Positions 10,078 to 27,457 of a stretch of DNA of 34,558 bases are shown here, one piece after another. This DNA comes from Candidatus Dadabacteria bacterium (GTDB lineage Bacteria; Desulfobacterota_D; UBA1144; Nemesobacterales; UBA2774), in the NCBI GenBank assembly GCA_020027805.1, contig JAHKKQ010000010.1:1-34558 (forward strand), in the 5' to 3' direction. The notes under the pieces are model-generated. The model was not told the origin of the DNA and did no database searches. It was given only the letters and a program-made list of their open reading frames with translations. Both the position numbers and the translations under genes were made by a program. Within the stretch, counting starts at the first letter, position 1; each line of letters opens with the position of its first letter.

Positions 10078-10571
10078 GTCATCGAGAGACCGTCTTCTGG
10101 TCGTGGCGATCTTGCTTTTCGTTGTCATTCCCGCGGAAGCGGGAATCCATATCTTTAAATCAAAATAAGAAAAGACTGGATTCCCGATTAAAGATTTCGG
10201 GAATGACAGAAAAGAAAAGGGTGAGATTGCCGCGCGCTTCACGCCCTCCGGAACAGAAAAGACAAAAATGTTTTTCTTCTTTTCCTTTATGAAAAGACAC
10301 GCATTGTGTGTTTTATGGAACGACAAAGAAAAGAGAAAGGCTGTTTTGTTATTCTTCTTTTCCTCGATGAAAAGAAGCATAATTCTGTAATGTCGTGAAA
10401 GAAAACTCCGCCCTTCGACCCTTCGACAAGCTTCCGTCTTCGCTATCCTCCTATGCTAAAGCTTCGGAGGATAAAAGGCTACGCCGGACAATCAGGGTGA
10501 ACGGGTCTGGCTTCGTTGCTGGTTTGAGCGGAAGAGATTCGGAAGAATCGTAGAGTCACACTACGTGCGTG
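10078..10571. repeat. Mosaic array of REP-like palindromes
   Basis: GTCATCG..GGCGATCT 10078-10112; inverted pair GTCATTCCCG..GGGAATCCA 10124-10149/10177-10207; CTTTTCC..GAAAAG units; CCCTTCGACAAGCT..CAGGGTGAACGG with nested insert; GGAAGAATCGT..CACAC tail. Confidence 0.85.
10433..10492 (+). mobile_element. 60-nt nested palindromic insert (copy 1)
   Basis: Removing it restores CCCTTCGACAAGCT|CAGGGTGAACGG, which is uninterrupted at 13284-13309. Confidence 0.8.
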
Positions 10572-11545: not shown

Positions 11546-11569
11546 ATCGCAACTGGAAGCCGCTCCTAC
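11546..11569 (-). repeat. GTAG-type REP
   Basis: Reverse complement GTAGGAGCGGCTTCCAGTTGCGAT; sister at 15237-15260. Confidence 0.8.
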
Positions 11570-11593
11570 AGATGGGAGATCCGGAGCCTCCTC

Positions 11594-13069: not shown

Positions 13070-13376
13070 GCACACAAAGTGTGGGTTTATGAAAAGACAG
13101 AGAAAGCTAAATTTATTTCTTCTTTTCCTTGATGAAAAGAAGCAAAAATCATCCGACTACAGTATTAGCTAAAAATCTCACGTACTCGCTAAATCTTCCA
13201 ATTCTGCCCCATCCCGTGGAAGATTTTTAACGCTCGTACAATCGATTTTCTTGACGCAAATTCTGTAATGTCGGAAATAATCACCCTTCGACAAGCTCAG
13301 GGTGAACGGGTTGGTTTCGGTTGATGGTTGAGCGGTGGAGTTGGAAGGAACCGTATATGCGCCACACATTACGTGC
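13070..13376. repeat. Mosaic repeat array: CTTTTCCTTGATGAAAAG unit, ~124-nt imperfect hairpin, empty CCCTTCGACAAGCTCAGGGTGAACGG and conserved tail
   Basis: TCCGACTACAG (13152) pairs with CTGTAATGTCGGA (13263-13275); inner TCTTCCA/TGGAAGA; parts shared with 1-115 and 10275-10571. Confidence 0.8.
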
Positions 13377-15091: not shown

Positions 15092-15236
15092 GTTCGGACC
15101 CTCACTCGAAAACGAGATAAACGAATCTACTTAAAGAAGAGCAGCATTTCAACAGGCGGTTGTGCCTTCGTGCGGCTCACTTTTCATCTCGACGCGGCTC
15201 TACGGGTCTTCCTGGAGATTCCCGATCCTCAAATCT

Positions 15237-15260
15237 GTAGGAGCGGCTTCCAGCCGCGAT
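15237..15260 (+). repeat. GTAG-type REP
   Basis: GTAGGAGCGGCTTCCAGCCGCGAT; stem GCGGCT/AGCCGC. Confidence 0.8.
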
Positions 15261-15350
15261 TAAACCCGATTATCGCACCAGGATGGTGCTCCTACAGGGG
15301 TAGGAGAATGACGGAGCAAATGGAGCGTGCGAGGCGGCAGGGCGAAACAT

Positions 15351-23740: not shown

Positions 23741-23761
23741 GCGGTGTCACCTCTTTTTTCT

Positions 23762-24042
23762 GTCATCGCGAGTAGCGACTTGTCCGGTGTAGCCTTTTAT
23801 CCTCCGAAGCTTTTGCATAGGAGGAATGCGAAGCCGGAAGCTACGTGGCGATCTCATCTTTTTCGTCATCCTGAACCATGTCCCGGACCCGATCCGGGAT
23901 CTATTCAGGATCTCATCTTTTTTATCACCATGCCCGTCCTTCGACAGGCTCGGGACGAACGGAGTGGCGAGTCGCCACGGACATACGAGATGTTGGCAGG
24001 GCCGAGGAGGTTGGGAAGGATCGTATATGAGCGCACATCGTG
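23762..24042. repeat. Mosaic REP array with nested inserts, running into the lhgO start
   Basis: GTCATCGCGAG REP with 60-nt insert; GTCATCCTGAAC REP with inner hairpin (23865-23914); CCTTCGACAGGCTCGGGACGAACGG plus tail. Confidence 0.85.
23779..23838 (-). mobile_element. 60-nt nested palindromic insert (copy 2, different host REP)
   Basis: Removing it restores GAGATCGCCACGTAGCT|TCGCTACTCGCGATGAC on the minus strand. Confidence 0.8.
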
Positions 24043-25283: not shown

Positions 25284-25560
25284 GTCATGCTGAACTTGTT
25301 TCAGCATCTCGTCTTTTATTCTTTTCTCCCTCCTTTTGTAAAGGAGGGTGAGGGTGGATTTTGCCCTAACGCATTCCGGTCTATTAATACATTCTTCTAT
25401 TTCTAACATAAACTTGATGCTTCTTAAAACCCATATAAAATTACTAGGGTTCGTGAGGGGATAGTTTAAAAATATCATCCTTCGACAAGCTCAGGACGAA
25501 CGGGAATATATAGCTAAGGTGCCCCCTCACCTTAATCCTCTCCCACGCTGGGGAGAGGAA
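25284..25560. repeat. Four different uninterrupted REP-like palindromes
   Basis: GTCATGCTGAACTTGTTTCAGCATCTC 25284-25310; CCCTCCTTTTGTAAAGGAGGG ~25325-25361; CCTTCGACAAGCTCAGGACGAACGG 25479-25503; CCCCCTCACC..GGGGAGAGG 25522-25560. Confidence 0.8.
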
Positions 25561-27171: not shown

Positions 27172-27263
27172 GTTCTTATCTCTCCACATATAAAGTACAG
27201 ATGTTCCGGGTCAATGTCAATTATGGTCCCTACGGGGCTCCATGCTTAATCCTACCCATTCAT

Positions 27264-27457
27264 CCTTCGACCCTTCGACCCTTCGACAAGCTTCCGGCTT
27301 CGCTATCCTCCTATGCTAAAGCTTCGGAGGATAAAAGGCTACGCCGGACAAGCAGGGCGAACGGGGCGGCGAGTCGCCGGGGACATACGAAAATGCCGCA
27401 TTTGCCGGTTTAGGCTGAGGAGGTGCGGAAGGATCGTATACGAGCACACAATGTGTG
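27264..27457 (+). repeat. CCTTCGAC(x3)-REP with nested 60-mer and conserved GGAAGGATCGTATA..CACAC tail
   Basis: First half nearly identical to 10411-10504; second half similar to 23958-24042. Confidence 0.85.
27293..27352 (+). mobile_element. 60-nt nested palindromic insert (copy 3)
   Basis: Lies between GACAAGCT and CAGGGCGAACGG. Confidence 0.8.

Follow-up and report, generated by a model that had tools for sequence, protein, structure and literature searches.

Among described systems, those closest to the nested hairpins reported here are the REP/REPIN elements, the cyanobacterial SDRs and the Ssn-related motifs. SDR4-6 of the Nostocaceae (Elhai et al. 2008, Genome Res 18:1484) are reportedly hairpin-like modules of 21–27 nt that have exact insertion points and are found nested, and they are not known to have an enzyme. 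We set beside them T30, the name given here to a family of hairpins of about 30 nt that contains two types, A and B, which together form a 60-mer. The likeness is that T30 units, like the SDRs as reported, are very small modules nested at exact positions; the two differ in lineage, apparently in sequence, and in target, which is HIP1 for SDR5 and GCY in a hairpin loop for T30. According to a passage in PMC4390886, SDR5 inserts exactly between bases 3 and 4 of HIP1.

REPs are thought to move as single-stranded hairpins by means of an HUH enzyme, and T30 and its host hairpin, H, share with REP/REPIN elements a short, imperfectly palindromic form, a high copy number, a mostly intergenic location and covarying stems (passages of PMC3116915, PMC3479197, PMC6006769 and PMC3733652). 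The occurrence of REPs inside other palindromes has also been reported (in part of PMC3733652). The differences are several. REP/REPIN elements have the foot 5' GT[AG]G, which T30 lacks: its stem starts T/C-C-N and the foot of its other strand is CTTG, TTTA or CTCG. REP copies flank their cognate RAYT gene, whereas T30 and H do not flank the RAYT genes of this genus, and REPINs are inverted doublets, whereas T30 units are single hairpins. Unlike REP/REPIN elements, T30 has a conserved loop with a variable stem and nests within itself to four levels. The RAYT junction is placed between C and T, the Escherichia coli enzyme cutting there and requiring a 5' GTAG in the passages of PMC3479197 cited here, whereas T30 junctions follow GCT.

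Elements of the IS200/IS605 group and their gene-less derivatives resemble T30 in inserting 3' of a short word in a fixed orientation, with no target duplication, and in having hairpin ends. These ends, however, are two different subterminal hairpins (LE and RE) with guide sequences (both statements from parts of PMC3479197 and PMC6006769), whereas T30 is a single 30-nt hairpin with cut sites 0 and 4 nt from the stem. Members of the group need a TnpA gene in the genome, whereas a PF01797 search found none in the genome studied here (G000). MITEs carry terminal inverted repeats and a target-site duplication, and no duplication is present at the mapped T30 junctions. Beyond general form, T30 has none of the defining features of REP-RAYT or IS200/IS605; its insertion pattern resembles single-strand (HUH-type) transposition. 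Ssn nucleases, finally, cut single-stranded DNA near their own hairpin motifs, and where SsnA was tested, cleavage fell outside the loop, upstream of the palindrome by a few bases (passages of PMC11893778).

Layout of the 60-mer and its hosts

The window, by which we mean the whole 34,558-nt stretch analysed (contig JAHKKQ010000010.1 of Candidatus Dadabacteria bacterium), contains at 27293–27352 on the forward strand a 30-nt hairpin (the inner unit, type B) that splits a related 30-nt hairpin (the outer unit, type A). The pair lies in the loop of H at 27261–27365. A preliminary description had proposed that a 30-mer is inserted here into a relative of itself and that, with the host, there are three levels of nesting. 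We confirm this layout, our data support its origin by insertion, and the three levels stand because H also exists empty. The features of the window are as follows.

27261–27292, + strand: left arm of host H, with CCTTCGAC three times in tandem; its end, ..GACAAGCT, is the insertion point
27293–27305, + strand: left arm of the outer unit (A), stem TCCGGC and loop half TTCGCTA
27306–27335, + strand: inner unit (B), stem TCCTCC/GGAGGA, loop TATGCTAAAGCTTC, tail TAAA
27336–27352, + strand: right arm of the outer unit (A), loop half AGGCTAC, stem GCCGGA, tail CAAG
27353–27365, + strand: right arm of host H, CAGGGCGAACGGG
10410–10505, + strand: second H[A[B]] copy, with the dimer at 10433–10492 (two mismatches) and the inner unit at 10446–10475
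23779–23838, − strand: third dimer copy (four mismatches), with the inner unit at 23796–23825, at the tip of a different hairpin
23762–23778, + strand: left arm of this second host hairpin, GTCATCGCGAGTAGCGA
23839–23856, + strand: right arm of the second host hairpin, AGCTACGTGGCGATCTCA
13282–13310, + strand: empty H, the reference for an unoccupied target
25476–25504, + strand: empty H

When the arms of the outer unit are joined by script, inner and outer units align without gaps and are identical at 20 of 30 positions, with the same consensus string as had been given earlier. Twenty identities were never attained in 200,000 shuffles, and among 300,000 sampled random genomic 30-mers a count of 20 or more arose at a rate of about 1 in 100,000. 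Within the 14-nt loop the two agree at ten positions (P = 0.0006). Their stems, TCCGGC/GCCGGA in the outer and TCCTCC/GGAGGA in the inner unit, are different and each is self-complementary, which bears out the compensatory stems noted before. Removal of the inner unit allows the outer arms at 27293–27352 to rejoin as an intact member of the family. Calculated with DNA parameters, the fold of the 60-mer is a single extended hairpin of −12.4 kcal/mol (z −3.2), and that of the 103-nt composite that includes H has −22.4 kcal/mol (z −3.7).

The dimer had been said to recur as a unit three times. This is the case in the window (27293–27352, 10433–10492 and 23779–23838), and there are no copies in the rest of the 2.35-Mb assembly. 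Its placement within the host REP holds for the copies at 27293 and 10433, while the third lies in another kind of hairpin. The first two are flanked by ..CTTCGACAAGCT and CAGGGYGAACGGG, and empty H reads ..CTTCGACAAGCT^CAGG.., where ^ marks the junction. Comparison of filled with empty copies places the insertion point in H at AAGCT^CAGG, between T and C, with no base duplicated or lost. A duplication of the target for A in H, with GACAAG on both sides, was considered and rejected because the filled H lacks the CT that it needs. Beside the third dimer, at 23862–23915, we note another nested pair, in which a GTCATCCTGAAC...TTCAGGATCTCATC hairpin encloses CCCGGACCCGATCCGGG.

G000 has 36 empty copies of H by a tolerant regular expression and 20 by an exact IUPAC pattern. 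All ten genomes of the genus contain empty H (2–68 copies), but outside the genus only four of 51 do so (1–2 copies). Copies of H with a 26–70-nt insert occur in 7 of 61 related genomes, all within the genus, and in none of the 51 genomes of 20 other genera. The H 24-mer is nevertheless found in very many other lineages, in at least 126 stretches and an estimated 37,000 or so (one genome per species). Exact H (CTTCGACARGCTCAGGRYGAACGG) was seen in sphingomonads, Burkholderiales, Chloroflexota, cyanobacteria and Methylococcales, among others; within the window's relatives, amplification of H is restricted to this genus. Five genomes of other lineages carry 89–352 copies of its 15-nt core (reversed control, 0), and these five show no T30 inserts. 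Outside the window's relatives the copies are often inverted doublets, as seen at the loci viewed and at paired places in G064. A literature search with H motif strings found no publication that prints the H sequence, and no Rfam family reaches its gathering score anywhere in the window.

Shorter inserts also occur in H loops at the same point in G000: 15-nt inserts (CAGGACAGGCAAGCT) on contigs C5, C127, C144 and C237, and 17-nt inserts (CAGGACAGGCTCCTGCT) on C12, C20, C107 and C205. Their boundaries are ambiguous because the insert ends repeat the flanks. The H variant with the 15-nt insert recurs in one of the five genomes of other lineages, G062 (Chloroflexota).

The T30 family, its free members and its nests

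T30 units are built of a variable 6-bp stem, a conserved 14-nt loop (T-T-C-G-C-Y-A-A-R-G-C-T-N-C) and a 4-nt tail. When the ten genomes of the genus were searched with the H arms and a gap, the occupants found were A alone, A with B, and A or B with a third 30-mer, type C (e.g. TCGGACTCCGCTAAGGCTTCGACCGACGAG), which is carried inside A or B. A 36-nt unit, D36, was found at three kinds of place: behind the 3' stem of A, in the loops of T30 units and within another D36. The nests of higher order that the preliminary description had suggested looking for do exist, up to H > A > B > C, that is host, outer, inner and third 30-mer (e.g. L033, L036 and L041).

Filled H copies were dissected with a recursive script that removes a contiguous unit (at least five of six stem pairs, at most five loop mismatches) and rejoins the flanks. 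By this procedure 38 of 63 were reduced fully to intact 30-nt or 36-nt units, through up to four levels. The resulting set comprises 67 T30 units, 43 of them distinct, and 23 D36 units. Stem positions of the T30 units are paired in 86.4% of cells, compared with a shuffled mean of 71.9% (maximum of 2000 shuffles, 77.1%); several stem positions have changed on both sides, and the loop is conserved. Inspection by eye for a wobble-type bias in the stems (A.C versus G.T) gave no discrimination.

In G000, A occurs uninterrupted five times (up to six mismatches) and once more in degenerate form (C54), in every case at one and the same point of the H loop, and two further copies carry the 36-nt unit (C153 and C90). 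In a search of 41 genomes of the same order with up to three mismatches allowed, B was confined to the genus, where it occurs in G000 and in six of the nine other species. Type-A arms enclose all 13 copies, always at the same position, and no free B was found in G000 or in these relatives. The exact 26-nt core of B was found in 15 metagenome stretches, one of which is A inside H. In the other 14 it has no A arms and unrelated flanks, and these free copies do not follow GCT. In five stretches (L232, L233, L235, L236 and L241), two of them on one contig, the free core has the same flanks of about 60 nt, and it is therefore part there of a longer repeat in some other organism. Whether monomeric 30-mers exist had been set beforehand as a test: with A uninterrupted in this genome and the B core free in metagenomes, both do. 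The two are also combined variously, B being seated in at least seven distinct A sequences, and in G009 identical A sequences occur with B (L036, L037 and L041) and without it (L227), and likewise with B at L040 and without it at L224.

Insertion sites and orthologous loci

T30 units lie next to GCT or GCY in a hairpin loop and are always oriented as their host. Of the 67 units, 46 are in H after RGCT^, a share that follows from the design because the sample was collected through H. The 21 insertions of T30 into T30 comprise eight after GCT^, 12 after GCCA^ or GCTA^ and one after CTT^, and for the 12, GCY^ is an equally good reading if the A is counted as part of the element (an ambiguity of 1 nt). 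The inner unit had been said to follow GCT. This holds in the window, where the target reads GCTA^ with the same 1-nt ambiguity, but the rule is better stated as GCY^: in relatives the target of inner in outer is GCCA^ in 10 of 12 parsed cases, and the one nested unit after CTT^ departs from it. Insertions into the second hairpin family follow AGCT^ in the window and CGCT^ in G003 (L004). Every T30 loop carries the GCT/GCY target, which explains the self-nesting. Orientation agrees with that of H in all 39 listed cases of T30 in H. The D36 units differ in their sites, 18 of 23 lying after the 3' stem of A, three inside D36 and two in T30 loops.

The right boundary falls after the tails CAAG, TAAA or CGAG, which have no homology with the sequence that follows. 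Unit boundaries are alike in the unrelated flanks provided by H, the second hairpin and the T30 loops, so flank homology cannot define them. A target-site duplication is absent at all mapped junctions. A cut at C^T, as made by the E. coli RAYT, was also tried and rejected: left junctions read GCT^N and right ones tail^N, and the filled sequences cannot be obtained from a cut at C^T.

Within the genus, the sequences on either side of the third dimer are conserved. The G007 ortholog of the 23779–23838 site is an uninterrupted hairpin, GTCATCGCGAGTAGCGAAGCTACGTGGCGATCTC, in which the stretches flanking the G000 insert, 20 nt on its left and 16 nt on its right, directly adjoin each other; G003 likewise has an uninterrupted variant. 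The 60-nt gap relative to G007 was set by an exact-match test, and a MAFFT alignment did not place it. Since the flanks are contiguous in G007, the 60-mer is an exact indel at the hairpin tip with no target duplication, and it can occur as one unit in a new site. At the H ortholog of 27281, for which orthology is positional, the species carry the following.

G000: A[B]
G004: A, sharing the rare left arm TTCGCTA, with D36 and without B
G006: a 17-mer
G003: another 30-mer
G008: empty, with a 20-nt core inverted between CCCGTTC and GAACGGG
G009: H absent at the site

The inverted-core H of G008 (L177, the ortholog of window 27255–27365) reads CCCGTTCATCTGAGCCTGTCGAAGGACGAACGGG; either the inner hairpin has flipped here or an insertion took place in the opposite orientation. 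The H at 10421 shares its A arm (TCCGTCTTCGCTA) and B with its G009 ortholog, which additionally has type C inside B and extra D36 units. The units are thus discrete, exactly bounded and orientation-specific cassettes that are present or absent as exact indels at orthologous sites.

No excision product or population polymorphism was seen in Logan contigs, which break at repeats and are distinct from reads. Contig joints from 23741 to 23909 (X2) and from 27292 to 27358 with 20 other letters (X5, side 20) are indistinguishable from other loci or strains. We note that contigs of two runs from different studies (X1 and X2) have 26 extra bases behind 25589 that are absent from the window and resemble the ATCGTATATGAGCGCACA-type repeat module of the intergenic mosaics elsewhere.

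Explanations for the nesting

The data support the view that the nesting at 27293–27352 reflects insertion. In our view the 60-mer is best regarded as two T30 hairpins, tiny non-autonomous mobile elements cut and pasted in single-stranded form by a trans-acting, strand-specific enzyme, and we would put the probability of this reading at about 60%. B would have been inserted into the loop of A, and A into the loop of H, each mobilized as a single-stranded hairpin by that enzyme. The likeliest type would be an HUH/Y1 enzyme working in a 'peel-and-paste' manner, a mode of transposition marked by fixed orientation, insertion 3' of a short word, hairpin ends and the lack of a target duplication. 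Presence and absence as clean indels in sister species mean that the units behave like some of the smallest mobile DNA elements.

Several observations count against this reading. D36 sites differ from T30 sites, and one rule does not cover all; the free B cores of the metagenomes do not follow GCT; the contigs gave neither an excision product nor a population polymorphism; the C^T cut and 5' GTAG of the E. coli RAYT do not match T30, and a single hairpin with adjacent cut sites is unlike the two-ended IS200/IS605 elements; and no transposase is linked to the T30 elements in G000 or the genomes of the genus. No Y1 transposase was found in G000 (93% complete) or in six other genomes of the genus, one of which, G007, is in ten contigs and yet contains six T30-filled H. 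RAYT genes are present in G009 and G003 (NF047646, 124 and 118 bits) and an IS200-like gene in G005. Both RAYT genes have inverted REPs of a different family, GTAGGAGCGGCTTCCAGCCGCGA, on their two sides, and neither T30 nor H flanks them. In favour of the reading, these two genomes have the most H-left/gap/H-right matches (16 places in G003 and 26 in G009, counts that include adjacent H pairs as well as filled loops). In the five genomes of other lineages, H doublets lie near one of nine loci with RAYT-like genes (L252; a tenth locus, L256, was left out), an uninformative result. A search of the genus, ten genomes in all, found no gene for a GxxExxY nuclease. The GTAGGAGCGGCTTCCAGCCGCGA REP also has copies in the window, at 11546–11578 and 15228–15297; a RAYT gene was not found in this assembly.

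A broader version of the mobile-element reading is more speculative, and we advance it tentatively. T30 and H may belong to a widespread, undescribed superfamily of loop-conserved, stem-variable hairpins that act as autonomous cassettes of about 30 nt, carry in their loops the target for a further copy, grow in a fractal manner to four levels and travel as variants between unrelated genomes. The enzyme activity, likewise undescribed, would cut after GCY in the loop and again 4 nt 3' of the stem, and would rejoin the ends in a strand-specific manner.

An account that needs no transposition is unlikely, though it survives best of the alternatives. Here rare composite hairpins would be copied by gene conversion or template switching, the shared arms serving as homology. 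A is almost always in H at one position, B in this genus is always in A, and the two H[A[B]] copies of the window are 97% identical over exactly the 95 nt bounded by H, all of which such copying would produce. The 60-mer is nevertheless inserted precisely into a hairpin of a different family, whose shared sequence is limited to AGCT on one side, with a further case after CGCT in G003; one orthologous H has four different inserts in four species; and in 14 of the 15 metagenome contexts the B core stands free. Template switching as a general cause was rejected because the right boundary, after the CAAG, TAAA and CGAG tails, has no flank homology.

Less likely still is that an Ssn-type GIY-YIG enzyme or another host nuclease nicks the extruded hairpin, which a hairpin oligonucleotide then repairs, so that the units are by-products. 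What brings such nucleases to mind is the family of the second host hairpin (GTCATYGCGAG...GCRATYTC, 38 copies in G000), which flanks on each side both of the small GIY-YIG genes found in this genome; T30 and H do not flank them. The genes are placed as follows.

G000 C77:103–393 (L244): small GIY-YIG gene
G000 C178, about 1444–1735 (L245), minus strand: small GIY-YIG gene with one in-frame TGA

This arrangement is similar to the motif–gene–motif layout of the Ssn nucleases (passages of Chenal et al. 2025, PMC11893778), enzymes whose cutting of single-stranded DNA near hairpin motifs is what this explanation calls for. The cut of the tested SsnA, however, was upstream of the palindrome. The published degenerate SRM pattern has 18 matches in the whole G000 genome and none in the 60-mer with its flanks, empty H or the second host; by this pattern, as given in the part of PMC11893778 cited, T30 and H are not NTS/Ssn-related motifs. 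A nuclease alone would also leave the exact joining at both ends unexplained. The brackets of the GIY-YIG genes are GTCATTGCGAG...GCAATCTC hairpins in inverted orientation, one with a loop insert of about 90 nt. Elsewhere in the window, at 10124–10149 and 10178–10207, we observed two inverted hairpins (GTCATTCCCGCGGAAGCGGGAATCC and a partner) that are near-identical to the Neisseria NTS consensus and one base off the published degenerate pattern (both as printed in passages of PMC11893778).

We give about as little weight to the proposal that the hairpins are kept mainly as functional RNA or DNA structures, such as REP-like mRNA stabilizers or attenuators, with nesting as tolerated loop expansion. 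The covarying stems show that structure is kept, and the composite folds as one long rod. As is reported for REPs in part of PMC3733652, H also avoids regions of divergent promoters: of the 27 intergenic cases in which both neighbours could be called (crude ORF calls), one lay in such a region. Against this, functional structure leaves unexplained the discrete 30-nt cassettes with fixed ends, their unrelated hosts and the exact indels between species, and the window has no Rfam match. Function and mobility of the hairpins are not exclusive. The weakest alternative, in which the 60-mer itself is primary and internal duplication with divergence gave rise to its inner half, is scarcely credible and already largely refuted. 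In its favour, the dimer recurs three times in the window and has moved as a unit into a second hairpin, and B is never outside A in the genus, but A occurs without B in this genome and its relatives, the same A is found with and without B, B sits in several A variants with its core free elsewhere, and other 30-mers occupy the same slot.

The locus gives an unusually clean view of 30-nt cassettes entering hairpin loops, with empty and filled orthologous sites, a target, an orientation and combinatorial nests. If they are mobile in their own right, the T30 units would be among the smallest mobile elements, and their cut sites would be a testable substrate for a candidate single-strand DNA enzyme. 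There is interest in using nucleases and joiners that act on single strands at specific sites as tools, as passages of PMC11893778 indicate.
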